Shown here: positions 48,352 through 64,000 of the stretch, piece by piece | Layout: the number at the start of each line of letters is the position of its first letter | Position numbering within the stretch: the first letter of the stretch is position 1 | Assembly: GCA_021152555.1 (NCBI GenBank) | Contig: JAGKVE010000008.1 | Location: 702 to 64,701, forward strand | Direction: 5' to 3' | Length of the DNA stretch: 64,000 nt | From: Bacteroidia bacterium | Lineage (GTDB): Bacteria; Bacteroidota; Bacteroidia; Bacteroidales; Paludibacteraceae | The notes under the pieces: generated by a model | The model's input: only the letters and a program-made list of their open reading frames with translations | The model's database searches: none | Told to the model about the DNA's origin: nothing | Made by a program: the position numbers and the translations under genes

Positions 48352-48372
48352 ATTCGTATTTTTCAAAGTGTG

Positions 48373-48529: not shown

Positions 48530-49492
48530 CTAATTATAGCACATACACCCATGGTGGAAGCCGACGCGTGCTGTGCGGCTGCCGCCAATCATGTAGGTCA
48601 ACTTGACGCCCGTGAAGAACGGTACTGTACGTGCAGGTTGGGCGAAAGTGTTGATATGTGGGTTGATTTGTATCTTGGTAGCGTCCCATTTACCGGGCTC
48701 TACTTCCGTTGTCAGACGGGTCTTCCATGTCTCCCCTTCGCGTTCGCGTAATTGGTTGTTCAGACCGTATTCGAAATAGAATGCTACTTTGAGTACATGG
48801 CATAAACGGCTGCTCGTTGGTAATGAAGAGAGCAGGTCATATCCAATCTCGCCTATCAGCGAGGCGCCTACGTTAAGGTTCACTTTGCTGTTCCCCTCGT
48901 ACGGATAATCAGTGTACCCGTGTTCCGGCATGTTCTCAAAGGTAGTCTGGTAGAAATGATTGGTTGCACTCAGGTTATATACGCCCTTCGTGTGTACGTT
49001 CGGGTTGAGCGCATAGCTCACTTTCACTCCGGCGCCGACATGAAATCCGCGTACATAGTAACCTAACAGCACGGGGATATCGATATAGTTCCACTCCATA
49101 TTATCTATTTGGTTGACGCGGTAATGGAAAGTATTAGGTTTGTTCTGCGTGTCCAGCCCGTCGTGGTCGTCAATATACTCGCTTACCTCGAGTGACGAAC
49201 GGTGAAAACTCATCTGTACGCCCACACTCGTCCATAAACCGCTGTTACGGAACTCATAGCCCAGTCCAATTGAACCGCCAGCCTTGCCGTGAGGCATTGC
49301 GTTCGGAAGGCTCGTCTGCAGCATCGAGTAACCTACACTGCCGCTTATGTAACCAAAGTGGAAATCATCGCCGTCTTCAAACGCGCTGTGTCGTCTAAGC
49401 CATGATTGGGATTGAACACCTGAAACCAGTAATAGCATGAGCGCTATCATCAGCAGTTTCTGACTTGCCGGCCTTGAAAAAATGTATCTCAT
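48530..49492 (-). CDS. outer membrane beta-barrel protein (PF13568-like by eye), co-oriented upstream partner of the giant gene
   Basis: Signal peptide (LMIALMLLLVSGVQSQ). Alternating hydrophobic/aromatic beta-strand pattern with Gly/Tyr-rich strands. 163 nt upstream of the giant ORF on the same strand. Confidence 0.55.
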   Translation of the reverse strand: MRYIFSRPASQKLLMIALMLLLVSGVQSQSWLRRHSAFEDGDDFHFGYISGSVGYSMLQTSLPNAMPHGKAGGSIGLGYEFRNSGLWTSVGVQMSFHRSSLEVSEYIDDHDGLDTQNKPNTFHYRVNQIDNMEWNYIDIPVLLGYYVRGFHVGAGVKVSYALNPNVHTKGVYNLSATNHFYQTTFENMPEHGYTDYPYEGNSKVNLNVGASLIGEIGYDLLSSLPTSSRLCHVLKVAFYFEYGLNNQLREREGETWKTRLTTEVEPGKWDATKIQINPHINTFAQPARTVPFFTGVKLTYMIGGSRTARVGFHHGCMCYN

Positions 49493-49610: not shown

Positions 49611-49696
49611 TTTTTGTATGAAAAGTATAAAAAAAACTGATTTTTTACACAATAAAATATAGAATTATACTTTTTTTTGAAAAAAATGCAGAAATA

Positions 49697-49728
49697 TTTG
49701 GTCATATAAAAAAAAAGCAGTACCTTTG
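49697..49728 (+). promoter_or_regulatory. Bacteroidota-type promoter of the truncated tRNA-His cassette (TTTG 49697-49700, N20, TACCTTTG 49721-49728)
   Basis: Nearly the same sequence as the promoter at 58034-58065 (ATTTGGTCAT.T.AAAAAAAAG..GTACCTTTGCA.CCGCTTTT). Confidence 0.6.
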
Positions 49729-49817
49729 CACCCGCTTTTAGGAAATGACGATAAATCGTACTTCGTATATCGTCAAATCGTAAATGCGCGTCGCGACCTT
49801 TGAGGTCGCTCGCTTAT

Positions 49818-49872
49818 GGTGGTCTTAGCTCAGTTGGCAGAGCATCGGATTGTGGTTCCGAATGTCGTGGGG
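49818..49872 (+). pseudogene. tRNA-His (GUG) gene fragment: G-1, acceptor 5' strand, D arm, anticodon arm and variable loop only
   Basis: GGTGGTCTTAGCTCAGTTGGCAGAGCATCGGATTGTGGTTCCGAATGTCGTGGG matches the copy at 58092 except for a few substitutions. After GTGGG there is no T loop or acceptor 3' strand (GAGCTTAAGACGAAAACTC). Confidence 0.65.
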
Positions 49873-50051: not shown

Positions 50052-51212
50052 ATGTCAACTCTTAGTCAATTTTCACCGCTCTTTGCGGGCTATGCCCCAG
50101 CGGTAGTGAAACACATTGCGACCGGATGGTTTATCGAGTATTACGTAACCAATCCTTTCACCCAAACATTAGAGCGTCGCAAGTTCCGATTAAACAATCT
50201 GCGCAAGCGTTGTCGTACTGCAATGGAGTTCAGAGTGCAGGCGAACACAATCTGTAGCCAACTCAATGTGAAGCTGGCTAACGGATGGAATCCTTTTAAC
50301 GAGGATGTCAAAACGGAGAACCCGGGCGCAGTACCTATTAAGATTGTTTACGAGCAGTATTTCCGTGACGTGGAAAAAGATCTTCGTCCTGATACTCTAC
50401 GCGGTTATAAGGCATTCAGCCGTAGGCTTCTTGAGTGGTGTGATAAGAGAAGCCCGGATATGCTGTTAAAGGACTTCTCTGATGTAATGGCTGTCCGCTA
50501 TCTGGACGAGCAGCGCCAAAAGAACAATTGGGTAAATGCCACCTTTAACAATAACCTTGTGAGCGCCCAAGCATTCTTTACTTGGTGCGTGAAGAAGAAG
50601 TTCATCGAGAAGAACCCATTCTACGGTATTTCCAAGAAGAAGAAAGAAGCCAAGAAGCGTACCATAATTAACGCAGACGCACGTGCTATCATGCGTGAAT
50701 GGTTTATGAATAATAATCCGGGTTATCTGCTCATCTGTGAGTTGGTGTTCCAATCGCTGATCCGTCCGACCGAAATCAGCAAACTGCGCGTGAGCGACGT
50801 TGATTTGGAGCACAAAGTAATTCACTTGGATGGCAGTATAACCAAGACAAAGTACTCGCGTAAAGCCGTGTTGAGCGACGAACTGATTGAGATACTTGGA
50901 CGTAACATCCAAGGAGCGAACCAAGATGATTACCTCATCAGTAACGGCTACCTGCCCGGCAAAGAGCCTATCAGTTCCCGCATGTATCGCAAGACGTGGG
51001 ACAAAATGCGTAAGCAGTGCCACCTCCCGGACACCATGCAGCTCTACTCCCTCCGTGATACGGGTATTATCAGCCTGTTTGATAATGGAGCAGACGCAAA
51101 TACTGTCAAGGGAGCAGCAGACCACCACAACCTCAACATTACGTCCATCTACTGTGACCACGTGGATGACAACCTTGTTGAGAAAGTCCGCAAGCACTCG
51201 GCTAAGTTCTAA
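50052..51212 (+). CDS. tyrosine-type site-specific integrase
   Basis: SAM-like N-domain (DTLRGYKAFSRRLLEW). Catalytic domain with LIRPTEISKLRVSDVD, LYSLRDTGII, and GAADHHNLNITSIYCDH (His and Tyr). Confidence 0.9.
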   Translation: MSTLSQFSPLFAGYAPAVVKHIATGWFIEYYVTNPFTQTLERRKFRLNNLRKRCRTAMEFRVQANTICSQLNVKLANGWNPFNEDVKTENPGAVPIKIVYEQYFRDVEKDLRPDTLRGYKAFSRRLLEWCDKRSPDMLLKDFSDVMAVRYLDEQRQKNNWVNATFNNNLVSAQAFFTWCVKKKFIEKNPFYGISKKKKEAKKRTIINADARAIMREWFMNNNPGYLLICELVFQSLIRPTEISKLRVSDVDLEHKVIHLDGSITKTKYSRKAVLSDELIEILGRNIQGANQDDYLISNGYLPGKEPISSRMYRKTWDKMRKQCHLPDTMQLYSLRDTGIISLFDNGADANTVKGAADHHNLNITSIYCDHVDDNLVEKVRKHSAKF

Positions 51213-51230
51213 GAGATTGGCGGTCGGGGA

Positions 51231-53054
51231 TTAGTCCTCGACCAGCCAAAACTCTCCTTTCATCAGTTCTGACATCCCATCTTCCGTGAAGGTAGCGGTT
51301 ATCTTCTCACAGATATACCGCTGCCCATGGATGACGAACAGCGAACGAACATTCGGGATATCTTTCGCAAGGAACTTGAACTTGTATTTCTTATTGGATG
51401 CTATGCGGTGCGTATTGGCATTTGATCCGAACAAGTTAGAGCGCAGGCGCATACTCAAGCCTGTCAGCTCAAAGTCCATCTCACGCGGGTACGTCAGCAC
51501 ATTGTCAATCACCGGAAACAACAACTTCCCGCGCATAGCATTATGGGTGCTACCCGTCCAGAAGCCCATATATAACTTGTCAAAGTACTCTACCGACCTT
51601 TCACTTTCGCCTGCTGATAGCTTCTTATCGGCATAGTCCCATGGTATCGTATTATTGGCACCGTTCAGGTACTCGCCACATTCCAAGAAGAAGGCATTGC
51701 CTTTGAAGTTGCCGTCAGCGTATGCTTCATCGATCCATACCGGGACAATCTTCATCTCAATCGTCTCTGCATTCTCATCGACGATAGAGTCACCAAACAT
51801 ATTGACCGGCTCCAAGGTGTTCAGATAGCGGGTATTGCCGGACAAATTAGCAGGCTGATTAGGGTCAACCAAATACGAGCCATAGTTGCGCAATACAAAG
51901 TATGTATCTTCATTCCGGCAATAGTAGAGATAGCTTGGACTCCAGCCGTTGTATTCCTCCTGCACATAGTCCGCTGCACCTCTCATTTCTATATAGAGAC
52001 GCTGCGCACCATTTACTTCCTTGTAGAATTTGCCATTATTATACGTGCCCAAACTATAGGACAAAATAACGTCCTGCGTTTTCATCATATCAACGAACCA
52101 TTTGCAGGAATAGTATTTCCATTTCCGGTGGTTACACTCTGCAAATTTGAGGTTGACGTATTCCCTGTATTTACAAGAACCAGCATCCTCCACGGTTGAG
52201 GAGAACTCGTCCACGATGTTCGTTAACTCAACTGTACCCGCCGAAGCAATCGCTTCCGTAGAGAAACGGAATGATATATGCTTCGAAACATGATCGATGT
52301 CGAACTCTCCATTGAGGAAATATTCCAATTGCTCAAACAGCTCTGTGAGCGTCCAGTGCGGCAAAGCCGTTGCCCAGTTGAAACACTTCCACGCATATGG
52401 GAGCGTATTGCATACGATAAGGTAGCGATATTGACTATCCATCAGCTTTGAGAAATCATACGAATAACCGACCGCGTTGCAGATCTGCTCAAGGAGATAA
52501 ATGAGATACGGCTGGAACGACAGTCCACGCGTATCGTAATACCACGACGAAGGCCAGTTGTCTGTATCGTTGGTGCGGTTCTGAAGGTTGCCGGTGGAGT
52601 TATTGACCCACGGCAAAGCAAGATAATTAAGCCCATTACTTATGCTATGCGCTATGTGCGAATTAGCAGGAAACGAGGACGGCGAAGTGTCAGGATAGCC
52701 CAAGTCCATTTCATTGATATAGATGATATCGAAATCGTCGGCATAGTTCGAGACGGACTTGCCTTCAAGGAACTGCGTCTTAACCTCAATATCGCTTATC
52801 TCCGTGATAGTGATAGAGCCATGACGATAGAATAATCCATTCCTAATCTCACAGTCAAAAAGCAGTTTCTGCGCCACTACGTCCTTGCGGTTTATATGCC
52901 CGAAAATAGCTAAGTTTTCAGGACATCCGGCAAGCGGGAACGTAATTGACAAGGAATAACTGTCAGCACCGGAGAAATACCGATTTTCGCTAACGAAATC
53001 GAACGACGTGCCTTTCTTGAGCACGGCTAATTTATTGTCCACATATATCTCCAT
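51231..53054 (-). CDS. phage tail protein of unknown family (gene immediately after the tape measure; distal-tail/tip position)
   Basis: 607-aa ORF whose start shares nt 53054 with the TMP stop. Assigned by position only. Confidence 0.45.
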   Translation of the reverse strand: MEIYVDNKLAVLKKGTSFDFVSENRYFSGADSYSLSITFPLAGCPENLAIFGHINRKDVVAQKLLFDCEIRNGLFYRHGSITITEISDIEVKTQFLEGKSVSNYADDFDIIYINEMDLGYPDTSPSSFPANSHIAHSISNGLNYLALPWVNNSTGNLQNRTNDTDNWPSSWYYDTRGLSFQPYLIYLLEQICNAVGYSYDFSKLMDSQYRYLIVCNTLPYAWKCFNWATALPHWTLTELFEQLEYFLNGEFDIDHVSKHISFRFSTEAIASAGTVELTNIVDEFSSTVEDAGSCKYREYVNLKFAECNHRKWKYYSCKWFVDMMKTQDVILSYSLGTYNNGKFYKEVNGAQRLYIEMRGAADYVQEEYNGWSPSYLYYCRNEDTYFVLRNYGSYLVDPNQPANLSGNTRYLNTLEPVNMFGDSIVDENAETIEMKIVPVWIDEAYADGNFKGNAFFLECGEYLNGANNTIPWDYADKKLSAGESERSVEYFDKLYMGFWTGSTHNAMRGKLLFPVIDNVLTYPREMDFELTGLSMRLRSNLFGSNANTHRIASNKKYKFKFLAKDIPNVRSLFVIHGQRYICEKITATFTEDGMSELMKGEFWLVED

Positions 53055-56000
53055 TATCTTCTTGATTTAGGGGTTTTGTTACGCATTAACTGTTCATACT
53101 CATCTTGGGCTTTCTTGATGCCCGTGTCACCGGTAACGGTGTTCACAGTCACAAACGGCTCATGCAACCGTACATTCATTTCGTTGACGGAGCGTGATAA
53201 GGCTTGCGACGCGGCTGCGACTGCAAGCAGTTCGCCATTAGAGGAAGCCTGTGCCATTCGTTGGGGAGCCGTGATAGACTGCGAAACATCCGAAGCAGAC
53301 AAGCGCCCGATGGTGTTGGTACGCTGGGCATAATCGAGTGTTTCAATCATAGCCCGTGCTTGGGGATTGCGGAGCAAGTCTTGACTTGCTACCCATTCTC
53401 CTGCATGGACGATACCGGCAGGTTCGTCCTTGCGTCCGGGTTTGGTGAAGCCTCCTTCCATATAGCCCTGCGCCTCGGACGCCTGTTGTTGCTTCTTGAT
53501 GGAAGCAATCTGAATAGCTCCAGCGGCTACAGCCATAGCAGCTGCTATAGGTGCCATGATGAAGCCGACCATCGGAATTGCAGCAGCCGAGGAGTAAGCA
53601 GAGATAGCAGACATGGCTGTTTGTGCCACGGCTTGCAGAACCTGCATTGCAAACATCTTCCGGTTTGCTTCCTGCTTAGCCTTACCTATCTCCGCTTGCT
53701 TCTGCTGCTCCAGAGCGACCTCTTGCGACTTATTACCCTCCGCATACGAGATTTCCCGGTCATACTTCCTTTCTATCTGAGCCGTTTGGATATCCAACTC
53801 GGCTTGGATGATTTCCGACAAGCCGGAGAAGATGGCTCCCATCTGATTGACGATCGTTGAGAACGATTCGGTCATGGCTTTGCCTGCATCGGACTCCAGC
53901 CATGCGATGCTATCGTCAATGGCTCCCCGGAAGGACTTTTTAAGTTCCTTCGCTTCACGCTTGTTATACTTGCGTGCCAACTGATACTTGGCTTCGTAGA
54001 AAGCGCGCTCTATGCGTAACCTATCACGTTTACTGTCACCGGCAGCCTTCAACATCTGCCTATATACCAACTCCAGGTTCTGCATGTCCCGTTGGTAGGA
54101 CTCGTCGTCCGTAATGCGGAAGCCTTTGGTAAAATACGCTTGGCGCATTTTCTCTTGCGCTTGCCGGGCTTCCTGCAAGTGCTTCTGTTGGTATTTGAGC
54201 GATGTATCGTGATAGTGTTTCTCCGCGCGTAGCTTCTCTTTGGATCCGTCTTCATACAGACTTGCCACTTTGCGCAAGTGCTCCAATTCAGCCAACTCGA
54301 TTGCATTCTGGTACTGACGTGCGGAGAGTTCTCCGTCCATATACCTCTGCTGAAGAATAGCCATCACTTCTTTATAAGCGACTTCCTCCTGCTGCACCGT
54401 CCCCTCAATGGCATTCTGACGCTGCTTCTTGAGCGCTTCCTGATACGAAGCTTCAATAGTTACTTCCTCGTTACCGACCAAGTCCTTATGCGCTAACTTC
54501 TTCCGATTGTATTCGACCTCAATCTCTAACATCCGGGTATTGTATTGCTCGTAGTCAGCCGTGCCTTTGGCATAGGCTATGCGATTGAGTGCCTGCTCGC
54601 GCTCGCGCCAATCATCTTCTGCTTGGAACTTGTTCCCCTTACCAGCCTTTTTATCGTCGTCACCGTCAGGTGCGCCACCACCAGAGGTAGATGCCTTTAC
54701 AGGGTCAGGTGCCTTTATACTGATACCGTTGGCTACGTCCTCCAACTCCTGCCACTCTTTTTTGAGCTTGCGCAAATCCGCTGAATACTGCCGTATATAC
54801 TTGGCATTTTCCTTTATTGCAGCCTTTACATTATCTTCGTTCGTGTAGCCCTTACCTGTTTTCAGCATTTCCTTATAGTTTCTGTTCAAATCCTCAAACA
54901 TAGCGATTTGGGACTCTACATGTGCTATCTTATCTTCTATGGGTATCTGCTGGGTGGCAATCTCCTCCAGTTTCTCTTGGTTCATCTTCATACGGATGGA
55001 CTCTTTGAGAGAAACGAGGTAGTTATCGAGGGCTTCCTTATTGTTATTTATCAGGACGCCCTCATCCGTTAGCGAGGCATGATAGGCCGGGACTAACTCC
55101 TTCAATTGTCTCAATGCTTCGCGGCGCTTTTCAAGGGAAAGGTTGCTATTATTAACAACCTTGGTTAGGCTGTTCACAGCCGCTGCTTCCTTGGCGTATT
55201 CCTCTACAATGGCTTTATTGTGGTCATCAATTTGCTTCTGAATACGCAACTGTCTTTCCTGTTCAGCCGTGAGCTTCTTCTGCTCTTTGACGGCATCTTT
55301 ACTGTTCTTGAAAAGCGAATACAGTGCTATGCCAACTCCCACAATCGCACCAGCCACCAATCCCCAAGGGTTCATCATCATGGTTGCGTTCAGCAGCTTC
55401 ATTGCTGCGTTTGCCCGGACGACGTTGCCGGTCATCCGGTTATAAGCGACGGATGCCGCAAGAACTGCCACCTTATGCACATGCAGCGCAGCCGTTTTTA
55501 TGGCTATAAATGCTGCGTGCAGCTTCTCCTTAATCAGTGCGAGATTGACTGCGACGGTATAAGTAGCAACAGCGGCAGCAAGGGAAAGAATAGCGGTTTT
55601 ATGCTCCTTGATGAATTTCACCAACTGAAGCATTACGCGCATAGTAGCAGACGTTGTTGAAATGAAGTGCCGCATTACCGGCATCAGTTCCTGACCCAAG
55701 GAAATAGCCATCTCTTGAAAGCCTTTGCGAGCTTTGTCCAAACCTGCTTGAACAGTATTGTTCTGCACCTCAAACTCTTTGGTGACGGACGTTGCCTCAT
55801 CAAAGGCTTTGGCAGCCTCCTGCTGCTCCCAGATAAGCATATCGACGTTACCCGCAAGTGCCGAAATGACCGCGGAAGCGCGAGCGCCGTTCTCACCCAT
55901 GTCTGCAAACACGGGTGCAAGGACGGACATATCGCCTAACTCGTTCAAGCGGTTGAGCAACATCAATAGTCCCTCATTAGTCGAGTTCTTGAGGGCCGCA

Positions 56001-57088
56001 TTAAACTTTTCAAGATCCATGCCAGTTGCACTGGCAATTTTCTCTGTGTTCTTGAAAAGGTTCATGATAAGTTTGGAGAGAGCCGTGGCTGACATTTCAA
56101 CCTTCTGTCCTTGGGAATCAAGAACAGCGCCAAAGGCCATGACCTGAGGAACGGTCATACCGGCTTGAGCGCCAACACCTGCAAGTCGTTGGCCGAACTG
56201 AGCAAGGTATGAAGCTCCAGCCGTGCAGTTCTGCGACAACTCATTGATCACAGAGCCAACAGCGAGGAGCGACCGCTCCGTGCCGAGCCGTTCTTCATCC
56301 CCAAATATGGACGTTAGTTTAGAAAGTTGCAATGTCGCCCCATCTCCAAGCTCATCCAACGCTACATTGATTTGGTCAGCCGCCTTTACGAAGCCAAGAA
56401 CGTCCTCCTCGGAAGATTTACCGAGGCGGCCTGCTTCTTGTGCAAGGCGATTGAGTTCCTCGCGCGAAGAGCGTGTGTCGATCTTCTTAAACTGTTCGTT
56501 TAGATGTTCGACCTGCTCAGCGGTCATGCCGGTGTACTTGCGGACAGATGCCATTTCCTGCTCCATTTCAGCATACATCTGCACAGCCTGCTTTCCTGCC
56601 ATGACAGCGCCCGTAAGGGCAGCGACACCACCGACGGCAACAGTCTGCCACTCTTGCCACTTACTATTAAACCGTTCCAAGAAGGTTTGCGACTTGGCGA
56701 GTTCTCCGTTAACTCGGGCAATCTCCTCCTTTACCAATCGTATCCTTTGCGCCTGTGCAGTCCATGCATCAGAGCCACGCTCCATATAGTCCAACTGTTT
56801 GTTGAGCGTCTGGAGCGTTTTCTGCAACTCCTTCGGGGTTGCCTTATCAAGACGACGGAGGACGTTATCGACCTGCATGGTGGATGACTCCATTTCTTTA
56901 ATCTGACGATTGGTGTCACGCAATTCCTTCCTTAGCTTTTGCAGCGTGAGTTTATCACCGGCTGCAGCAGCCTTGGCTATCTGTTCCGATAGTTCCAAGG
57001 CGTGTTTCTTCAGGTTGGCGAGCGTCTCGGCTGCCTGTTGTCCGTTGACCATTAAGTTGACGGACGTATTAGTTGAGTAGTCTGACAT
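53054..57088 (-). CDS. phage tail tape measure protein (TP901-family core)
   Basis: Long coiled-coil N- and C-parts. Core region DQINVALDELGDGATLQLSKLTSIFG...YLAQFGQRLAGVGAQAGMTVPQVMAFGAVLDSQGQKVEMSATALSKL, followed by TM-like segments. Start set at ATG 57088 because a TAAATTTG box lies inside the GTG-57142 extension. Confidence 0.85.
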   Translation of the reverse strand: MSDYSTNTSVNLMVNGQQAAETLANLKKHALELSEQIAKAAAAGDKLTLQKLRKELRDTNRQIKEMESSTMQVDNVLRRLDKATPKELQKTLQTLNKQLDYMERGSDAWTAQAQRIRLVKEEIARVNGELAKSQTFLERFNSKWQEWQTVAVGGVAALTGAVMAGKQAVQMYAEMEQEMASVRKYTGMTAEQVEHLNEQFKKIDTRSSREELNRLAQEAGRLGKSSEEDVLGFVKAADQINVALDELGDGATLQLSKLTSIFGDEERLGTERSLLAVGSVINELSQNCTAGASYLAQFGQRLAGVGAQAGMTVPQVMAFGAVLDSQGQKVEMSATALSKLIMNLFKNTEKIASATGMDLEKFNAALKNSTNEGLLMLLNRLNELGDMSVLAPVFADMGENGARASAVISALAGNVDMLIWEQQEAAKAFDEATSVTKEFEVQNNTVQAGLDKARKGFQEMAISLGQELMPVMRHFISTTSATMRVMLQLVKFIKEHKTAILSLAAAVATYTVAVNLALIKEKLHAAFIAIKTAALHVHKVAVLAASVAYNRMTGNVVRANAAMKLLNATMMMNPWGLVAGAIVGVGIALYSLFKNSKDAVKEQKKLTAEQERQLRIQKQIDDHNKAIVEEYAKEAAAVNSLTKVVNNSNLSLEKRREALRQLKELVPAYHASLTDEGVLINNNKEALDNYLVSLKESIRMKMNQEKLEEIATQQIPIEDKIAHVESQIAMFEDLNRNYKEMLKTGKGYTNEDNVKAAIKENAKYIRQYSADLRKLKKEWQELEDVANGISIKAPDPVKASTSGGGAPDGDDDKKAGKGNKFQAEDDWREREQALNRIAYAKGTADYEQYNTRMLEIEVEYNRKKLAHKDLVGNEEVTIEASYQEALKKQRQNAIEGTVQQEEVAYKEVMAILQQRYMDGELSARQYQNAIELAELEHLRKVASLYEDGSKEKLRAEKHYHDTSLKYQQKHLQEARQAQEKMRQAYFTKGFRITDDESYQRDMQNLELVYRQMLKAAGDSKRDRLRIERAFYEAKYQLARKYNKREAKELKKSFRGAIDDSIAWLESDAGKAMTESFSTIVNQMGAIFSGLSEIIQAELDIQTAQIERKYDREISYAEGNKSQEVALEQQKQAEIGKAKQEANRKMFAMQVLQAVAQTAMSAISAYSSAAAIPMVGFIMAPIAAAMAVAAGAIQIASIKKQQQASEAQGYMEGGFTKPGRKDEPAGIVHAGEWVASQDLLRNPQARAMIETLDYAQRTNTIGRLSASDVSQSITAPQRMAQASSNGELLAVAAASQALSRSVNEMNVRLHEPFVTVNTVTGDTGIKKAQDEYEQLMRNKTPKSRR

Positions 57089-57105
57089 AGTACTAAATTT
57101 TTGTG

Positions 57106-57140
57106 CAAATTTACTATGCAGCGACGAAACACGAAAAGAC
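57106..57140 (-). promoter_or_regulatory. candidate promoter of the TMP unit (TAAATTTG = complement of 57106-57113)
   Basis: -7 box about 18 nt upstream of the ATG at 57088. Confidence 0.45.
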
Positions 57141-57373
57141 ACCCCGAAAAGTGGCTTTTCTGACAGCGAGGAACAGCCAGTAAAATCAAGGGCTAACGAC
57201 AGATTTTAGGTGGAAATTCGTTCCTCGTTGTACAAAATTTTCGCTGATTGAAATTGTAACTAATTGAAATTCAGCAGCAAAGGGGTTCGGGGATGTGCCC
57301 CGAGTTTGCTCTTAGGTAGCCCCAACCGCCCTGCAATGATAGCGTTTCCGCGTCTCTTTTTGGAGCGGAATAT

Positions 57374-57935
57374 GCAAGTCCCCTTGCGAAAGTCCGAGCG
57401 CGCAAGTCTCCATGTAATCGGAAAGGCTGCAAGTCTATGCGTGCAAGTCCGAGTGTGGAGGTCTCACCCTAATCAGCGAGGGCGCAGGTCTCTCACGGAC
57501 TGAAAGCGCGCAAGTCTCCATGTAATCGGAAAGGCTGCAAGTCCATGTGTGAAAGTCCAAGTGCGGAGGTCTCACCCAAATCTGCGAGGGCGAAAGTCTC
57601 TCACGGACGGAAAGCGAGGGTCTGCTATGTAATCGGGAAAGGTCGAAAGTCTGCTATTTGCGAAAAGGCTTATAGTCTCCCGCGTACATTATGCGCACGC
57701 AAGACATCGCGCGCGCAAGGCTGCAAGTCTATCACGGCTGACGAAAGGCGAAAGTCTGCTACCTATCGCGCAAGGCTATGAGGTCACACATGAGCGCGCA
57801 AGGCTATGGGGTCTGCTATGGGTTCGGGGAGGTCGGAAGTCTCTCTTGAACGCATGGGGATGAGGTCGTGCGCGAGCGCGCGCAAACCTTTGGGAGTCGG
57901 CTTGTAGCAAGGGAAGAGGTGAAGTCTGCTACGGC
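57374..57935. repeat. iteron-like array: about 22 RRGTCY boxes, including a 108-nt tandem duplication
   Basis: Units 57400-57507 and 57508-57615 differ at 10 of 108 positions by my count. Degenerate copies follow. Recurrent boxes are GTCTCCATGTAATCGG, GTCTCACCC, GTCTCTCACGGAC and GTCTGCTA[TC] (5 copies). Confidence 0.85.
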
Positions 57936-58033
57936 TTTTGTGCTCTTTTTGTTCGAGAAAATACACAATTTTGATTGTGCGGTAACGATTTTCACGCAAA
58001 AACACTAAAAATTCGTGAAAAAAGTAAAAAAAA

Positions 58034-58065
58034 TTTGGTCATGTCAAAAAAAAGTTGTACCTTTG
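58034..58065 (+). promoter_or_regulatory. Bacteroidota-type promoter of tRNA-His (TTTG 58034-58037, N20, TACCTTTG 58058-58065)
   Basis: Canonical layout 27 nt upstream of the tRNA. Confidence 0.6.
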
Positions 58066-58091
58066 CAGCCGCTTTTGAAAAAGAGCAGTAT

Positions 58092-58165
58092 GGTGGTTTT
58101 AGCTCAGTTGGTAGAGCATCGGATTGTGGTTCCGAGTGTCAAGGGTTCGAGCCCCTTACTCCACC
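58092..58165 (+). tRNA. tRNA-His (anticodon GTG) with encoded G-1; two adjacent acceptor-stem mismatches
   Basis: Manual cloverleaf: G-1, GTGGTTT, TA, GCTC-AGTTGGTA-GAGC, A, TCGGA-TTGTGGT-TCCGA, GTGTC, AAGGG-TTCGAGC-CCCTT, ACTCCAC, C73. Pairs 5-68 (T/T) and 6-67 (T/C) do not form. No encoded CCA. Confidence 0.7.
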
Positions 58166-58173
58166 CGCTTGAT

Positions 58174-58202
58174 AATCAGCACTTTACGTGCTGATTTTTT
58201 TT
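58174..58202 (+). terminator. rho-independent terminator after tRNA-His
   Basis: AATCAGCAC-tttac-GTGCTGATT followed by TTTTTTTT. Confidence 0.8.
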
Positions 58203-58307
58203 ATTTCTGTCCCAAAAATGTCCCGATGAACGGTAGAAAGCAATACGCACGTGCATAAGCGCGAGCCTATACACATGCGTACGTGTTTTGATATATAAAG
58301 GTGTAGC

Positions 58308-58862
58308 TCAAATGATATGCTTCTTGTGCAGCCATAAGTAGCCGAGAATTGCACCTATGATGAGGAGCGTAATCCCCAATCCCAACACAATGAACACAGC
58401 CGTTAGGTTTGGGGGTTCAGCGCCACCGATGGACTCCTTGGAGTCATTGGTGGATGTGTGGGTTTGGGAATTGCTCCGTGTGCTATCGGCCACGTTGGTC
58501 TGCTGAAGCACATTCGAGCCACTCCTTTCCTCTTTGTTGATACGCGGCTGATGTATGGTAATGCGCCCTTTACGCGCAGGCTTGGCCGTCGCCGGTTGAG
58601 CCTGTGCGTTTGGGTTTGCCGCAAGCGAGTCAGCCTGCGGCAAAGCTGTGGGCGCACTATCATACAGATCAATGGTTATACTATCCGCAGAGACGGATAG
58701 CTTTGAGAACAGGCTATCCAGCCTCTGGGTGGTAGTCTGTTCCTGGTGTGAGGACTGCTCGTCTTGCTTCACACCTACCTCCGACACCGTGTGTCGGGTC
58801 GTGTGGCAAGCCGAAAGCAGTACCACACCTATAAGCATAATGGCTCTGCAGATAGTTCTCAT
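58308..58862 (-). CDS. unimolecular-spanin-like lysis protein (N-terminal lipoprotein signal plus C-terminal TM anchor)
   Basis: Lipobox VVLLSAC at the N-terminus. Low-complexity Ser/Thr/Gln-rich middle. C-terminal TM LTAVFIVLGLGITLLIIGAILGYLWL. 4-nt overlap with the amidase gene. Confidence 0.45.
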   Translation of the reverse strand: MRTICRAIMLIGVVLLSACHTTRHTVSEVGVKQDEQSSHQEQTTTQRLDSLFSKLSVSADSITIDLYDSAPTALPQADSLAANPNAQAQPATAKPARKGRITIHQPRINKEERSGSNVLQQTNVADSTRSNSQTHTSTNDSKESIGGAEPPNLTAVFIVLGLGITLLIIGAILGYLWLHKKHII

Positions 58863-59266
58863 AAGGCAGCGTATTCAGAGGTGGCATCAAAACACGGACA
58901 TGCTTTCTTCGCAAAATCACGGTGACCGTGAATAACAGCCTCCGGGAAGCGCTGCTTGAGGTCTGTAAGCAGCCCAAGCAACGAGGCTTTTTGCGCATCG
59001 GTGCGGGTGTCAGCAGGCTTGCCTTCGGCATTTAGACCGCCACAATAAACAACTCCGATAGAGTTTTTGTTGTGGTCGAGGCAATGCGCTCCAGCCTGCT
59101 CTAAGGGGCGTCCGGGGAATACATTCCCATCTTGATCTACCACATAGTGATAGCCGATGGTTTTCCAACCACGCTGCTTGTGCCAGCGTGTGATGTCGGC
59201 TACAGTGACGCGTTGGTCCGGGAAGGTAGCCGTGCAATGAACGATGATTTCCAAAATTTTTCTCAT
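58859..59266 (-). CDS. N-acetylmuramoyl-L-alanine amidase (Amidase_2/PGRP, T7-lysozyme-like endolysin)
   Basis: IVHCTAT, GYHYVV, and HGHRDFAKKACPCF (Zn ligands His/His/Cys). Confidence 0.85.
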   Translation of the reverse strand: MRKILEIIVHCTATFPDQRVTVADITRWHKQRGWKTIGYHYVVDQDGNVFPGRPLEQAGAHCLDHNKNSIGVVYCGGLNAEGKPADTRTDAQKASLLGLLTDLKQRFPEAVIHGHRDFAKKACPCFDATSEYAAL

Positions 59267-59526
59267 TCTGATTCAGGATTAGGTTTTTGTGAAACTGTGA
59301 TTTTTGTTTTTCCGTGCTCAATCTTGGTATTGAGCCCACGGATGACGGCATCCCATGCAAAGAAGATTGCGACGAGAATGATCATCAATCCGACACCTTG
59401 GATGATAGAGGGGTGAACTTCCCCCGGAGGCGGAATGATAATGCCGGCAATGAATGTGGCAGCTGCCACGAAAGCGAGGGCTATAGCGACCCACGCTTGG
59501 GGAGTTAAGGCTTTAAGGTTTTTCAT
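59263..59526 (-). CDS. holin-like small membrane protein (two TM helices)
   Basis: 87 aa with TM1 AWVAIALAFVAAATFIAGIII, TM2 GVGLMIILVAIFFAW and a charged C-tail. 4-nt overlap with the amidase gene. Confidence 0.5.
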   Translation of the reverse strand: MKNLKALTPQAWVAIALAFVAAATFIAGIIIPPPGEVHPSIIQGVGLMIILVAIFFAWDAVIRGLNTKIEHGKTKITVSQKPNPESE

Positions 59527-59542
59527 AGTTTTTATAGATTAA

Positions 59543-60148
59543 TTAGATTGGGGTTGCCTTGATGTAGAGGGTTGAATTAGCGGAGATGTTGGATGTGCCG
59601 TTCGAGGAGAAATGCGTGAGGTGGACAGTTTCTCCGGGGTCGAGAAAGCACATGTAGTTGATAGGCACGGAGAAGATCTGCGTAGTGCCGGTAAAGTGAA
59701 CTGCATTCATGGCGATTTGTGTACGCTCCCCTTCCGTATCATATTTGTAGATTTGTATGATACGGTCGGCAGTATAGCTGTCGTTGACTTTGAGCGTAAC
59801 AAAGCCAGTAATCTCGACCAGACAACGGCTGACGCACCGCAAGAGCGGCTCATCCGAATCGTTCGTTGTGATGTCAATTACGCTACCGCAGATGGAAGAG
59901 CAATCTGTATCATCGGTAACGATAGGACACTCCACGGCAGCGGTGGTAGTGAGTTGGCACACGTGTCCAAAGAACCAGTTCAAGCCAAGCGGAAGACTGC
60001 TTCCGCCTCCGGAACTACCGCCACCTCCATTGCCGGTGTTCTCATTGATGGCATGGAGGATGTTAGCCAAAGATTGGGGTGTGATTGAATTGGCAGCCGT
60101 TTGGTTTGCCAAAGCGTTGATAAGGCTAGTGATGGTTGATTTATCCAT
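59543..60148 (-). CDS. hypothetical phage protein: helical N-segment, Gly/Ser linker, Cys-containing beta-rich C-domain (fibre or receptor-binding-like)
   Basis: ITSLINALANQTAANSITPQSLANILHAI, then NGGGGSSGGGSS, then a ~140-aa beta-rich domain. No family recognised. Confidence 0.4.
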   Translation of the reverse strand: MDKSTITSLINALANQTAANSITPQSLANILHAINENTGNGGGGSSGGGSSLPLGLNWFFGHVCQLTTTAAVECPIVTDDTDCSSICGSVIDITTNDSDEPLLRCVSRCLVEITGFVTLKVNDSYTADRIIQIYKYDTEGERTQIAMNAVHFTGTTQIFSVPINYMCFLDPGETVHLTHFSSNGTSNISANSTLYIKATPI

Positions 60149-60164
60149 AGTTTTAAGGTATTAG

Positions 60165-60581
60165 TTAGTATAACTTGTTAAGGCGTTCGAAGGTATCGGC
60201 CATGATGCCTTGGAATTCGCGTCCAAGGTTATCGCCGAAGAAATCGCGCAGGTTCAAGACGGAGGCATAGTATCGTTTGGAGAACCAAGGGCGGCGCTGG
60301 CGCACTTTGGCACGGCCTATGTCTCCCGAGTTGCCGCGTGGTGTTTCGCGGCCAACTCCATAGTCCTGCCAAAGACCGTACTCCAAGAACTCCTGTGAGA
60401 GCGTGACTTCGACGAAGCGACCATCCGCTCTCACGGGCATAGCCACCGGCGAGGCGAGCAATCGCCCTGTGTCGATTACCTCGAGCAAGGTGATACGCTC
60501 CTGCCAGATGCGGAGCATGGTTTCGTTCCAAGCCTTGATATATTTCTCGCGCTCTTCCTGCACTTCAATCTCTTTGACCAT
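60165..60581 (-). CDS. HK97 gp10-like phage neck/tail-completion protein (tentative)
   Basis: VIDTGRLLAS ... EYGLWQDYGVGRE ... RRPWFSK resembles the gp10-family pattern (DTGxLRxS ... EYAxYVEFGTG ... PF). Confidence 0.4.
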   Translation of the reverse strand: MVKEIEVQEEREKYIKAWNETMLRIWQERITLLEVIDTGRLLASPVAMPVRADGRFVEVTLSQEFLEYGLWQDYGVGRETPRGNSGDIGRAKVRQRRPWFSKRYYASVLNLRDFFGDNLGREFQGIMADTFERLNKLY

Positions 60582-61651
60582 TATGCGAAGATTTGATTAT
60601 ATTGTTCGGTAAATATGCCGGTGTGTATGCTGTAGCGTTGGGTGGACTGCTTGCCATCGGCAAACTGCCACGTGAAGGAAAGGGTGTTTTCTTCACCCGG
60701 AGCGTCGGTCTGCTCAAAAGAATATTCCTTGATGAGCACATCAGCAAACATACCATCCGGCAGCTTGCGCATGATGAATGAGGATGTGAGGAACTGCTCC
60801 AGCCATGTCATGTAGCCGGAGAGCAGTTGGGCTGTCTGCACCTCGAAGGTACGGGTGTGCTTGACATCGTAGTGCTGCAGGCGGCCGTCCACCATCGCTT
60901 CGGAGAAATCCGATTCCAGTTTGGAAATGGTGGCGCCGGGTATGCCCAACGACTCCATACATCCGAATATGTTTTTGAAGCGGAACTCCTGTGCAGAAGC
61001 GCAAGGTACAACGTAGTAGTGAATGAGCCGAGAACTGAACTTGAGTGTGAACGATAGCAACTGTGTGCCGTTCCCGAAGTGGTTTTCGCAGACCCATTGC
61101 AATTCCTTAACGGATATGGTGGAAGTGACTATTCCGAAAGCAAAGCGGCGACCGGAGATGTACTCGTAAGAGTCATAGGAGCCGTCGGCTTTCCGCACGT
61201 TCAGCGTAAAGACGAACGTGCCTACTGAATAGTTACCACTGCCTGCGATGTAGAACGGCAGCACCTCCTGGTTATACAAGGTAGTAAGGCGATGATTGTG
61301 GGTAGTGAGGAACGAATCGGCAAGGAAGGTATCCACATCGACAGTCATACACTTTAGCTTGCATAGGAGCACTTGGCATGAAGCGTTGACCGTTTCATTG
61401 GCAACTGATATGGTAATGCCGACCGTGCAGAAGGATTTTCCTTGCTGCTCCATGGATAACTCAACCAGCGGCACGAGATTGCGCACTGTGACCCTTCCGG
61501 AAACAGCGTAATAGCGTGTGGAAAGTGCGGTAGAGCCGTTCACTGCGATAGTGACATTGGCTAAACCATAGTTGGTGGAAATCGACAAATCGGGGAAATC
61601 ACAAGAATAGAATTTCTTCCCGTCGATTGATGTATTCAAAGTTAAAGCCAT
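60581..61651 (-). CDS. hypothetical phage structural protein (first gene of the cluster; capsid or major-tail position)
   Basis: 356-aa beta-rich ORF. Start set at ATG 61651 (MALTLNTS) because a TATCTTTG box (complement of 61671-61678) lies inside the longer ORF. Confidence 0.4.
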   Translation of the reverse strand: MALTLNTSIDGKKFYSCDFPDLSISTNYGLANVTIAVNGSTALSTRYYAVSGRVTVRNLVPLVELSMEQQGKSFCTVGITISVANETVNASCQVLLCKLKCMTVDVDTFLADSFLTTHNHRLTTLYNQEVLPFYIAGSGNYSVGTFVFTLNVRKADGSYDSYEYISGRRFAFGIVTSTISVKELQWVCENHFGNGTQLLSFTLKFSSRLIHYYVVPCASAQEFRFKNIFGCMESLGIPGATISKLESDFSEAMVDGRLQHYDVKHTRTFEVQTAQLLSGYMTWLEQFLTSSFIMRKLPDGMFADVLIKEYSFEQTDAPGEENTLSFTWQFADGKQSTQRYSIHTGIFTEQYNQIFA

Positions 61652-61670
61652 ACCTTTGCTAATTTTTGTG

Positions 61671-61700
61671 CAAAGATATGGCATTTAGCTTATTCTTCAA
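61671..61700 (-). promoter_or_regulatory. candidate promoter of the structural/lysis cluster (TATCTTTG = complement of 61671-61678)
   Basis: -7 box 20 nt upstream of the ATG at 61651, immediately downstream of the umuC stop. Confidence 0.5.
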
Positions 61701-61712
61701 AAGACACCCTTT

Positions 61713-62975
61713 TTAAGTGGCTTTGAGGGTGATGATGTCGCGGAGGTCTGTCGTGTAGAGAGGGCTCTTGTGCTCGTTCTTATAGATTGGCTTCTCGGAG
61801 GTCATCTGAGAGCCGTAAATAATTGAGCGCTTGCCTTGGCGGTCTTCAATCTGGTCGAGCACGCGCTGCAGGCGTTTGTCCTTGGCTCTGTCCTTGGTGT
61901 CGAACATATCGGGGACGACTGCTGCCTCGGGGATGATTTTCAGCAACACCACGCCGGCTTTCTTATAGAGAATGCCGGGACGATACGAACGCCGGAACGC
62001 TCCCAAAGCGAAGGCGATCAATTCCTGATTGTTTGCCGTAGCGACGGGGAGCGTTACCAGTTCGGAGAGGTAGTGTTGCTCTACATCCGTTCTGAAGGGT
62101 GATGTGTGGGCATAGACATACAGCTGCTGCGCAACGGACTTTTGTGTGCGCAACTGGCGGGCACAATGCGCGCAGAAGTTTGCTATCTGTTCCTCCAAAA
62201 GAGATTGTTCGGTGATGGCTGTGGCGAACGTGCGCGATGTCGTTATCGACTGCTTCATGGGCAACTCCGTAATATCTATTACGTCTTGACCACGAAGCTC
62301 CTGCCACGTGAGCAGTCCGGGTTTATTGAGCAGGCCACGAGCAAAGGTAGCGGGCTTCTCGGTAAACTGCAAGGCTGTGGTAACACCCGCTGCCGTGAGT
62401 TTCGCCTTTGCTCGTCTGCCAATGCCCCAGACATCACCAATCTCGAACTGTGAGAGTGCCTTGATGCGCTGCTCTTCCGTGCGTATCTCGCACACCCCGT
62501 GATAACCGGGATATTTCTTGGCATACTTGGATGCCACTTTTGCCAGCGTTTTAGAAGAAGCGATGCCGATTGAGACGGGTATGCCGACACCCTTGCGGAT
62601 GTCCCGAACCAACTGCTCGCAAAAGGCTTTCTGTTCCTCCTCCGGCACATGATCGATATTGATGAAGCTCTCATCAATGGAGTACTGTTCAAAGCGTGTG
62701 GTGTGTGCGCGGAGGATGGACATTACCCGGTCCGATAAATCGCCATACAGGGAGAAATTGGATGAGAAGCATACAACTCCCTCTTTCTCCACCAGTGCCT
62801 TGATTTGGTAGAGCGGTGCGCCCATGGGTATGCCGAGTGCCTTGGCTTCGTTGGAACGTGAGACAACGCAGCCGTCGTTTCCGGAAAGCACGACAACCGG
62901 CTTTCCCTCCAAATCAGGACGGAAAACGCGTTCGCACGAGACGAAGAAATTATTACAGTCGGCTAAAGCGAACAT
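61713..62975 (-). CDS. umuC: Y-family translesion DNA polymerase (UmuC-like)
   Basis: [43 protein letters not shown], and [10 protein letters not shown]. Start at ATG 62975 abuts the umuD stop. Confidence 0.85.
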
Positions 62976-63409
62976 CAGAGACGCGTTTTGTGGATGGCGT
63001 AAGTAACTACACCCCAAACGGAAAACTCATTGTTCTTATCGACGCGTATGGGCTGGAAATCGGGATTGTGCGGTATGAGCCAAGCGCACTTGCCGGACTC
63101 ATCGAGTTTGAACTCCTTGAGGGTGTATTCGCCGTCGATATAAGCGACGATAAAATCCCCGTTCTTTGGGTCGAGACTACGATCCACGACCACCAAATCC
63201 CCATTAAGGATACCTGCATCACGCATGGAGTCACCTTCCACGTGGGCGTAGAAAGTAGTTTCCGGATGGGGTGTCAATTCCCGCGCAAGATTGATGCGCT
63301 CGCCTGCATGATCAGCAGCGGGCGAAGGAAATCCGGCATGGATGGACTCCGCAAATTCAAGAGCAAGTTCGGCTTGCTCGGAGTCTGTAATATCAATTAG
63401 TTTTGCCAT
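62975..63409 (-). CDS. umuD: UmuD-like S24 peptidase subunit of polymerase V
   Basis: [39 protein letters not shown] (Ser nucleophile in GDSM), and YTLKEF (Lys). Confidence 0.8.
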
Positions 63410-63692
63410 TGGGCCAAAACTCAAAGCGTTCTAATTTCATTTGTCCGCAAGCCTCAATCTCGGCTACGTATTTCTTGAACTCCGGCGTAGCGGAGTGAAG
63501 GTCGAGCGAAGCTTGATCCTTCCAAGTTTCGCAAATCAAAAACACGTCAGAGCGGGTCGCGCTCTGGAACACATCATAAGCGATGCACCCGGCATGAGAG
63601 CGGGATTTCTCGGTCAAAGCTACTGCAGCACGCAGAGCGTCCTTGTACTGGTCACCATCGGTGGCCTGAAAAAAGCAATTTAAGCGTATCAT
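63393..63692 (-). CDS. antibiotic-biosynthesis-monooxygenase (ABM) domain protein
   Basis: About 99 aa from MIRLNCFF. Ferredoxin-like ABM pattern (GCIAYDVFQS ... LICETWKDQASLDLHSATPEFKKY). Confidence 0.55.
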   Translation of the reverse strand: MIRLNCFFQATDGDQYKDALRAAVALTEKSRSHAGCIAYDVFQSATRSDVFLICETWKDQASLDLHSATPEFKKYVAEIEACGQMKLERFEFWPNGKTN

Positions 63693-63693
63693 A

Positions 63694-64000
63694 TTACTTG
63701 GTATATTTAGCGTGTAGATTGGCGATGATGCCCGTGAACTTGTCGCGGAGAGGTTGAGGAGAAAGCACTTCGGCTTCATCGCCACGTCCTAAAATCTCCT
63801 GCATAAACTCAAAGTTCGGTGCAAGATGGAACTGGAAATCGGAGTACTCTGCTGTGGTATTGATTTCCTTTTGCGACTTGTGCAGTGGAAGTGTCCGCAA
63901 GTACGAAACGCCTTTGCGAGCGACGCGCACGACTATATCTTGCACCTCGTCCGCTTCACCCATCGTCATTCCGATATAATCGGAGAAGTATTTCTTCACA
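63694..64000 (-). CDS. C-terminal part of a WYL-domain (YafY/PafBC-like) transcriptional regulator; partial, continues beyond the window
   Basis: The frame is open to the window edge. The tail VVRVARKGVSYLRTLPLHKSQKE ... FEFMQEILGRGDEAEVLSPQPLRDKF matches the WCX-type C-terminal extension of WYL regulators. Confidence 0.5.
   Translation of the reverse strand, partial: VKKYFSDYIGMTMGEADEVQDIVVRVARKGVSYLRTLPLHKSQKEINTTAEYSDFQFHLAPNFEFMQEILGRGDEAEVLSPQPLRDKFTGIIANLHAKYTK

Follow-up and report, generated by a model that had tools for sequence, protein, structure and literature searches.

The module described here lies at 50052-61700 of a 64,000-nucleotide stretch from a Bacteroidia bacterium of the Paludibacteraceae (assembly GCA_021152555.1, contig JAGKVE010000008.1, positions 702 to 64,701; hereafter the window, numbered from its first nucleotide). 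It comprises a tyrosine integrase, a predicted tail-tip hub, a tape measure protein (TMP), a one-strand motif array, a complete tRNA-His, a lysis cassette and three further open reading frames (ORFs) of 201, 138 and 356 aa, and it is followed by a block of umuC, umuD, an ABM monooxygenase-like gene and a WYL/WCX regulator cut by the window edge. A first-pass annotation had listed the module's genes, remarked on the absence of head, packaging and replication genes and left three readings side by side: a decayed or rearranged prophage, a tail-only or satellite-like locus, and the left arm of a larger prophage whose head genes lie beyond 64 kb.

We scanned the window ORFs against Pfam, PHROGs and NCBIfam and called RNAs with ARAGORN and Rfam (Table 1). 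Every listed feature was recovered in place and intact, and no ORF of 50052-61700 matched a terminase, portal, protease, capsid, repressor or replication family, so that the reported absence of terminase, portal, prohead protease, repressor and replication genes holds for this interval. The TMP ORF spans 53054-57142, with the called 1344-aa gene beginning at 57088. Relatives were collected in a scan of species-representative genomes (13 loci, all in rumen Paludibacteraceae or Bacteroidales metagenome-assembled genomes (MAGs)) and from terminase-centred IMG/VR loci, and the window proteins were compared with them by BLAST. All nine module ORFs recur at equal length in more than 20 homologous contigs, and the frameshift decay that would mark a dead remnant was not seen.

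Table 1 Features of the integrase-linked module and its flanks in the window
Feature	Position	Strand	Evidence or remark
Promoter region, host tRNA-His gene	49681-49739	+	-7 box TACCTTTG at 49721-49728 (motif match)
Truncated host tRNA-His, 5' two-thirds, attL	49819-49871	+	Core TCGTGGG at 49865-49871
Tyrosine integrase, 386 aa	50052-51212	+	PF00589 E 8.6e-19; phrog_1 E 1.9e-36
Predicted tail-tip hub protein, 607 aa	51231-53054	-	No family match; AlphaFold2 and Foldseek fold
TMP, 1344 aa, TP901 type	53054-57088	-	PF10145 E 6.9e-21; TIGR01760 tape_meas_TP901 76.4 bits (cut-off 28.8); phrog_25337 E 7.7e-56
Bacteroidetes -7 box (TAnnTTTG)	57106-57113	-	~20 nt ahead of TMP ATG
One-strand array of 19 GCRAGTCY-like motifs	57376-57927	+	Motif count
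Phage-borne complete tRNA-His (GUG)	58093-58166	+	ARAGORN; Rfam 55.7 bits
Spanin-like protein, 184 aa	58308-58862	-	Lipobox LLSAC and C-terminal transmembrane segment, read from sequence; no family match
N-acetylmuramoyl-L-alanine amidase (Amidase_2, endolysin)	58859-59266	-	PF01510 E 9e-16; phrog_822 E 3.5e-59
Holin-like protein, 87 aa, two transmembrane segments	59263-59526	-	Topology read from sequence
201-aa protein	59543-60148	-	No significant family or PDB match
138-aa protein, conserved in structural module	60165-60581	-	No family match
356-aa protein, predicted tandem Ig-like beta-sandwich domains	60581-61651	-	No family match; AlphaFold2 model
Bacteroidetes -7 box (TAnnTTTG)	61671-61678	-	~20 nt ahead of ATG of the 356-aa gene
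umuC	61713-63017	-	Pfam
Cargo block: umuC, umuD, ABM monooxygenase-like protein, C-terminus of WYL/WCX regulator	61713-64000	-	Pfam

Head and packaging genes in relatives of the module

The head and packaging genes missing from the window were found in its relatives. A single 43.5 kb IMG/VR contig (loci L059 and L149) carries the same WYL-ABM-umuDC block, with amino acid identities of 92% for WYL, 98% for ABM, 95% for umuD and 99% for umuC, and upstream of this block, genes for a large terminase and a head protease are accompanied by a portal-like gene and by a 320-aa gene in capsid position. The terminase matches phrog_2 (E 1.6e-8) and aligns along 92% of its length, at 34% identity (E 2e-87), with a protein annotated as the large terminase in Microcystis phage Mea-Yong924-1; phages of Porphyromonas, Flavobacterium, Cellulophaga, Polaribacter and Bacteroides encode further homologues. 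By this homology, the large terminase assignment in the lineage of the window is solid. The head maturation protease is of the ClpP type (phrog_94 E 8e-35; PF00574 E 1e-16; NF045542 93 bits). The portal-like gene matches phrog_11226 (E 0.002 in this contig and 1.6e-6 in L016), and the 320-aa gene that follows the protease is, from its position alone, the probable capsid gene.

Two further loci connect this arrangement to the window. L042 shares 97.6% DNA identity with the window over 58028-61707, including a 356-aa protein that is 98.6% identical, and the C-terminus of a large terminase lies 5.3 kb upstream of its 356-aa gene. L144, which encodes exactly the umuD of the window and is 96.6% identical to it in DNA, starts ~130 nt past the point at which the terminase ends in L053, L055 and L059; its first segment (L144:1-616) is ~80% identical to the post-terminase DNA of these three loci and is followed by type I restriction-modification genes, WYL, ABM and umuDC. 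Because L144 reaches post-terminase DNA ahead of its cargo, window-like prophages would be expected to carry the terminase just upstream of the cargo. Seven loci extend far enough upstream for a decision: a terminase is present in six of them (L042, L050, L051, L140, L057 and L059) and missing from L002. Relatives from this lineage come as contigs of phage size (43-46 kb).

Two synteny types were observed, distinguished by whether the portal-like-278-249-182 block follows the 370-aa gene (type F; L016, L038, L126) or precedes the small and large terminase genes (type W; L050, L057, L059). The type F order is 211-TerL-cargo-370-portal-like 444-278-249-182-145-349-holin-amidase-~160-gap-TMP-~610-integrase, and the type W order is portal-like-278-249-182-211-TerL-cargo-356-138-201-holin-amidase-184-(tRNA-His)-array-TMP-607-integrase. 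In full, a type W prophage comprises the head maturation protease, the probable capsid gene, several small genes, the portal-like gene, three further genes, a small-terminase-like gene, the large terminase, variable cargo, the 356-, 138- and 201-aa genes, the lysis genes, the tRNA-His and array, TMP, hub and integrase with attL. L050, L051 and L140 follow this series from the portal-like gene (seen at that end only in L050) through 278-249-182-211-TerL-cargo-356-138-201-lysis-TMP-607 to the integrase, and the window shows it from the cargo onward only. The position of the lysis cassette amid structural genes, which the first-pass annotation had remarked on, is real; the order lysis cassette-gap-TMP-hub-integrase recurs in both synteny types, at more than 40 loci, and is a conserved trait of the whole family, and therefore points to no rearrangement peculiar to the window copy.

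Between the large terminase and the 356-aa gene, the relatives carry a hypervariable cargo slot (61713-64000 in the window; L004, L040, L059 and L133-L148). Its contents include type I and MmeI restriction-modification systems, a PLD-SNF2 helicase with a methyltransferase, a Schlafen/AlbA_2 protein, AAA_14/DUF4143 proteins, transporters, an alpha-amylase and YbjQ. The WYL/WCX regulator and the ABM protein are nearly always present and umuDC usually, which agrees with the earlier suggestion that WYL-ABM-umuDC is an inserted block. One MAG (SRR12081302_bin.7) holds two relatives with different integrases, L041 and L051, pointing to polylysogeny or a mixed bin.

Taken together, the segment from 49.87 to 64.0 kb most probably forms the arm on the integrase side, about a third, of a temperate siphovirus-like prophage of ~43-46 kb (more with large cargo) that sits in a host tRNA-His gene and belongs to a lineage that is very common in ruminant-gut Bacteroidales (Paludibacteraceae). 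Of the three first-pass readings, this is the left arm of a larger prophage, and it is favoured by L042, L059/L149 and L144, which place terminase and head genes upstream of the cargo. The head and packaging genes would lie to the right of 64 kb, and, if the cargo resembles that of L138 or L144, the large terminase would end ~7-10 kb past the window edge; we infer that the window copy is complete. The expectation that such genes follow upstream in the same orientation was borne out in the relatives, while the window copy ends at 64 kb, before that region. A 5.6 kb contig with the exact ABM protein shows no difference from the window where they overlap and continues for 302 nt past its right edge. 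Long contigs were found with the exact umuD and holin proteins, their 10 kb flanks ending in cargo, and a metagenome scan with HsdM gave short upstream stretches only.

Integration site and the phage-borne tRNA-His

Beside the integrase, at 49681-49871, lies a second, truncated tRNA-His with its promoter that the first-pass annotation had overlooked. The promoter region is 83% identical to that of the internal tRNA-His (58018-58076). The ~53 nt of truncated tRNA match the internal tRNA at 91% identity through the D and anticodon arms and diverge at the T stem, after GTCGTGGG; with 25.3 bits the fragment stays under the Rfam gathering score of 29, and it is not recognised by ARAGORN. The DNA similarity that the window shares with eight other copies ends at 49816, where the truncated tRNA starts. 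To the left of this stump the genes look like those of the host (NrdD/NrdG, SusD, a 4128-aa protein and an outer-membrane beta-barrel protein), so that, as in a prophage, the integrase lies at the element's edge beside an attachment junction, with host genes outside it. The 4128-aa ORF (35980-48366, minus strand), with a C-terminal T9SS type A sorting domain (26.4 bits) as its sole family match, probably encodes a very large protein that the host secretes to its surface; the 320-aa outer-membrane beta-barrel gene (48530-49492, minus strand) adjoins it.

The attL junction next to the 386-aa integrase reads ...GTGTCGTGGG followed by GAGCTTAAGACG in the window and eight other contigs (nine copies), that is, ...GTCGTGGG joined to GAGCTT; the host promoter and nt 1-~53 of the tRNA stand ahead of it in these copies. 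An attR was read in L002 only, as ...CCATCGTGGG followed by TTCGAGCCCCACTCTCCACCC plus a terminator, its right side beginning TTCGAGCCCC. Since the attL and attR readings overlap in TCGTGGG, these 7 bp were taken as the shared core. The T arm in tRNA-His fragments outside the phage-borne gene (L140 and L002) is of the host type and reads GTGGGTTCGAGCCCCAC. In the scheme that follows from these junctions, the integrase would recombine at TCGTGGG, at the start of the T stem inside the host tRNA-His gene; integration would leave the promoter and the 5' tRNA stump by the integrase, a 3' stump would be expected at the far end, and the attP predicted across the circular junction would read ...ACCATCGTGGGGAGCTTAAG... 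A search for the empty attB site through the neighbouring outer-membrane protein returned 1.2 kb contigs only. A relative with a 421-aa integrase (L140:19430-19510) has beside that gene only a fragment of tRNA-His, the 3' two-thirds, with an altered anticodon loop; the fragment is preceded by the motif CGGATTAGAG, whose reverse complement occurs in the window in the arm adjoining attL.

The internal tRNA-His has its own -7 box (58058-58065) and a terminator hairpin. It lies between the lysis genes and the array in every examined relative with the 386-aa integrase and is absent with other integrases (L050, L051, L140 and type F). Its T stem, AAGGG/CCCTT, differs from the host's GTGGG/CCCAC by a compensatory change, and this recoding is why the phage copy lacks the core TCGTGGG. 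As the core is short and splits the gene at the T stem, the tRNA would be rebuilt at neither junction. We infer from the sequence that the phage tRNA-His stands in for the disrupted host gene, the pattern of tRNA-dependent lysogeny, of which the three sequence features are present: an integrase with its attB in a tRNA gene, a short core and a phage tRNA. Among the titles returned by a full-text literature search for the term, none was a Bacteroidota report.

Tail, lysis and array features

Structure prediction, proposed as a check with the first-pass annotation, was applied to the 607- and 356-aa proteins. The AlphaFold2 model of the 607-aa protein (predicted local distance difference test (pLDDT) 83, predicted template modelling score (pTM) 0.81) was compared with the PDB by Foldseek, which gave a probability of 1.0 for Mu gp44, the MuSo2 43 kDa tail protein, the monocin tip, the PVC/AFP spikes and VgrG of the type VI secretion system (T6SS), and of 0.93 for the 80alpha baseplate; target-normalised template modelling (TM) scores were 0.39-0.50 for phage and tailocin hubs and lower for longer spike proteins. 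By its modelled gp27/Mu gp44/VgrG-like fold, the protein is a tail-tip hub placed after the TMP. It has 1458 homologues, and its gene comes after the TMP gene in all contexts examined; relatives at 44% identity occur in prophages at differing host sites and in ~45 kb IMG/VR contigs, and tblastn against deposited phages returned a single unannotated 4.3 kb record. In one relative, an AAA_14/DUF4143 ATPase gene stands between the TMP and hub genes (L138:16574-17830); in all other copies examined, the two genes abut or overlap by one base.

The model of the 356-aa protein (pLDDT 79) consists of tandem Ig-like sandwiches and a small C-terminal domain. It resembles uncharacterised siphovirus proteins in BFVD (TM 0.5-0.67), including those of Flavobacterium phage 23T and Polaribacter phage Leef_1, and in the PDB generic Ig-domain arrays only. 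A role as the capsid protein was ruled out, as the model lacks an HK97 fold. The family is small (22 clusters); the gene is the first past the terminase and cargo in relatives, and the protein is ~29% identical to the 370-aa homologue of type F phages. Neither an IMG/VR scan (no close relative) nor tblastn against deposited phages (zero matches) added to the family.

The labels given at first pass to two neighbouring proteins fared differently. For the 138-aa protein, whose identity among the examined phages of types F and W ranges from 47 to 99% (the type F homologue being a 145-aa protein of ~55% identity), the name gp10-like, after HK97 gp10, was dropped: no Pfam match was obtained for 14 family members at E up to 5, and the PDB was blank by sequence and by profile. 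For the 201-aa protein, called fibre-like, no significant database match was obtained. The protein has a conserved 39-aa N-terminus, a Gly/Ser linker and a variable C-terminal domain; L004 and L005 share just the first 39 aa in this slot, and other relatives hold a 349-aa-type gene there. A swappable slot in which the N-terminus alone is conserved suggests a fibre or receptor-binding role, and the sole hint among the PDB matches was a non-significant one to a fiber protein (E 0.27).

In the lysis cassette, the endolysin is backed by family matches, and the putative holin and unimolecular spanin were called from membrane topology in the sequence. The position of the 184-aa protein after the amidase is conserved in relatives, and the exact 87-aa holin sequence was found in 2566 blocks of a public collection.

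The iteron-like array of the first-pass annotation is real and strongly strand-biased: the pattern [AG][AG]GTC[TC] occurs 19 times on the plus strand of 57350-57940 and never on the minus strand, against ~1 per kb per strand elsewhere. Spacing is mostly 14 or 24-29 nt, and the array includes a 108-nt unit twice (91% identity). It is found once per genome, in the same gap, in all type W relatives including those without the tRNA (14-28 copies; 0-3 in type F). A structured RNA or known RNA family was ruled out by a blank Rfam search and by folding z-scores of -0.4 and -1.5, no better than shuffled sequence. With low confidence, we would guess at a DNA-level protein-binding site, for example a replication origin or a regulatory site. 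The two promoters proposed at first pass, at 61671 and 57106, do coincide with -7 boxes ~20 nt ahead of a start codon; they are motif matches only, in a window with 62 matches to TAnnTTTG where 33 are expected by chance.

Competing explanations, known systems and implications

Several observations weigh against the assignment of the window to a complete prophage with tRNA-dependent lysogeny. The window stops inside the WYL gene, so the head genes are unseen in this copy, and the closest long relatives (L040/L142, L138 and L143) have at least 10 kb of cargo, with fetched flanks that fell short of the terminase. In the relatives, the portal is called from weak PHROG matches and the capsid gene from position only, and the family as a whole yielded no identifiable tail tube, distal tail protein (Dit) or tail chaperone. 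The attR was found once, in a genome other than any that supplied an attL. In the acceptor stem of the phage tRNA-His, two pairs are non-canonical, 5:68 U.U and 6:67 U.C, and such pairs occur in all copies, with C/T variation and no covariation at positions 6 and 67 of the others; that this tRNA functions is therefore uncertain. Lysogens would depend on it only if the split host tRNA-His gene is essential or single-copy. Finally, one relative, L002 (L002:6001-21068, on a 162 kb contig), is a 15.5 kb att-bounded head-less derivative with a 3' tRNA stump at its boundary.

Two of the alternatives draw on L002. Its 3' stump and host genes (S41 peptidase, coaD and prfB) lie 4 kb upstream of its 355-aa gene, all retained ORFs are intact, and its integrase (visible part), hub and TMP are 100%, 98% and 93% identical to those of the window. 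Since its cargo, AAA_14-ABM-...-270-aa, corresponds to the post-terminase cargo of L057, L002 is, from its gene content, best read as a deletion derivative of a full prophage; it may be a remnant or possibly a satellite. That the window copy is decayed or rearranged, the first of the first-pass readings, thus keeps a small probability. In the form of a head-less derivative like L002, which would retain everything from the cargo to the integrase and lack the stretch between the terminase and the far att site, this is unlikely: the precedent of L002 has exactly this structure and the window ends ahead of the decisive region, but six decidable loci have the terminase against one without, window-like L144 runs into post-terminase DNA, and no ORF of the window module is truncated. 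We consider it decidedly improbable that the window copy is head-less yet intact and mobile, a "tail-tip and lysis" satellite with the integrase, the replacement tRNA-His, TMP and hub, the swappable 201- and 356-aa proteins and the lysis cassette, obtaining heads, tubes and packaging from co-resident full-length relatives; we know of no such class described in Bacteroidota.

The second first-pass reading, a tail-only locus akin to an F-type tailocin or a satellite that supplies tail tip, lysis and integration and takes capsids from a helper phage, could draw on the absence of any head or packaging gene at 50-64 kb, and on L002, whose intact ORFs and near-identical integrase, hub and TMP could share an att site and virion parts. 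We had entertained a satellite or tail-only locus early on, when non-phage genes were seen upstream of the 356-aa gene in L002 and L004, and dropped it once L042, L050, L051, L057, L059 and L140 showed terminase and head genes further upstream. The full-length relatives are phage-sized (43-46 kb) and carry portal-like and probable capsid genes besides the large terminase and the head protease, just one head-less instance was found, and no satellite hallmark gene was. Family scans of 50-64 kb recognised no tail tube gene either, which argues against a self-sufficient tail-only locus, as the cluster could not build a tail alone; the reading is very improbable. Least probable of all are two elements flanking a host tRNA-His, namely an 8.3 kb integrase-hub-TMP-array unit and an unrelated lysis and structural block. 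Direct repeats of promoter and 5' tRNA-His 8.27 kb apart (49819-49871 and 58093-58145) do bracket the integrase, hub, TMP and array; however, the order lysis-gap-TMP-hub-integrase is unchanged in the tRNA-less type F, L050, L051 and L140, the tRNA copies are only 83-91% identical with differing T stems, and the matching 3' stump of L002 lies beyond the 355-aa gene and cargo, away from the internal tRNA.

The prophage reading also allows comparison with described systems. Megablast of 50-64 kb against deposited phages gave no DNA match. At the protein level, the lineage resembles other temperate siphoviruses of Bacteroidota (Flavobacterium psychrophilum phages 1H, 23T and 2A, Porphyromonas gingivalis prophages, Bacteroides phage BT-TP2 and Polaribacter phage Leef_1, compared together with Microcystis phage Mea-Yong924-1): the terminase is homologous at 34% identity (Mea-Yong924-1) or 25-27% (others), and so are the TMP and the portal-like gene (E 1e-30). 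The gene order of Mea-Yong924-1 is similar, with protease, capsid, small genes, small and large terminase, a ~357-aa gene, more genes, TMP, more genes and integrase. Unlike these phages, the window lineage has its lysis cassette directly upstream of the TMP, a large post-terminase cargo slot, the motif array and the tRNA-His. F-type tailocins (pyocin F and monocin) and satellites (P4, phage-inducible chromosomal islands (PICIs) and capsid-forming PICIs (cfPICIs)) likewise have a TMP, a hub and lysis genes, the hub of the window matching the fold of the monocin tip protein, and satellites also have an integrase at a tRNA gene; in contrast to them, the relatives of the window carry head and packaging modules and measure 43-46 kb rather than 8-20 kb (except L002), and the cluster has no tail tube.

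tRNA-dependent lysogeny is known from actinobacteriophages, namely mycobacteriophage Fionnbharth and Cluster L phages, and Lactobacillus prophage Lj965 is a suspected case (Guerrero-Bustamante and Hatfull 2024, PMC10865867). The window shares with that system a tyrosine integrase, an attB within a host tRNA gene, a short core (7 bp here, ~10 bp there) and a tRNA that is not rebuilt. It differs in its Bacteroidota host and in the isotype (His versus Lys); moreover, a distance of 8.2 kb separates the phage tRNA from attP, the tRNA being placed between lysis and tail genes, with its T stem recoded so that the core is missing.

What is new is of limited extent: a further temperate siphovirus of Bacteroidota, whose sequence carries the marks of tRNA-dependent lysogeny. 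What looked like a head-less island of tail and lysis genes would be an arm of an ordinary and very widespread rumen Bacteroidales prophage, unusual in its conserved gene order, and would count neither as a tailocin nor as a satellite. The lineage would add a sequence-level case of tRNA-dependent lysogeny beyond the groups with reported or suspected cases to date (Actinobacteria, Lactobacillus and Sinorhizobium), one in which recoding of the phage tRNA may be an escape from the phage's own integrase. The map of the cargo slot, with its restriction-modification systems, other defence-type genes, WYL regulator and umuDC, bears on how rumen prophages may move defence and mutagenesis genes among their hosts.

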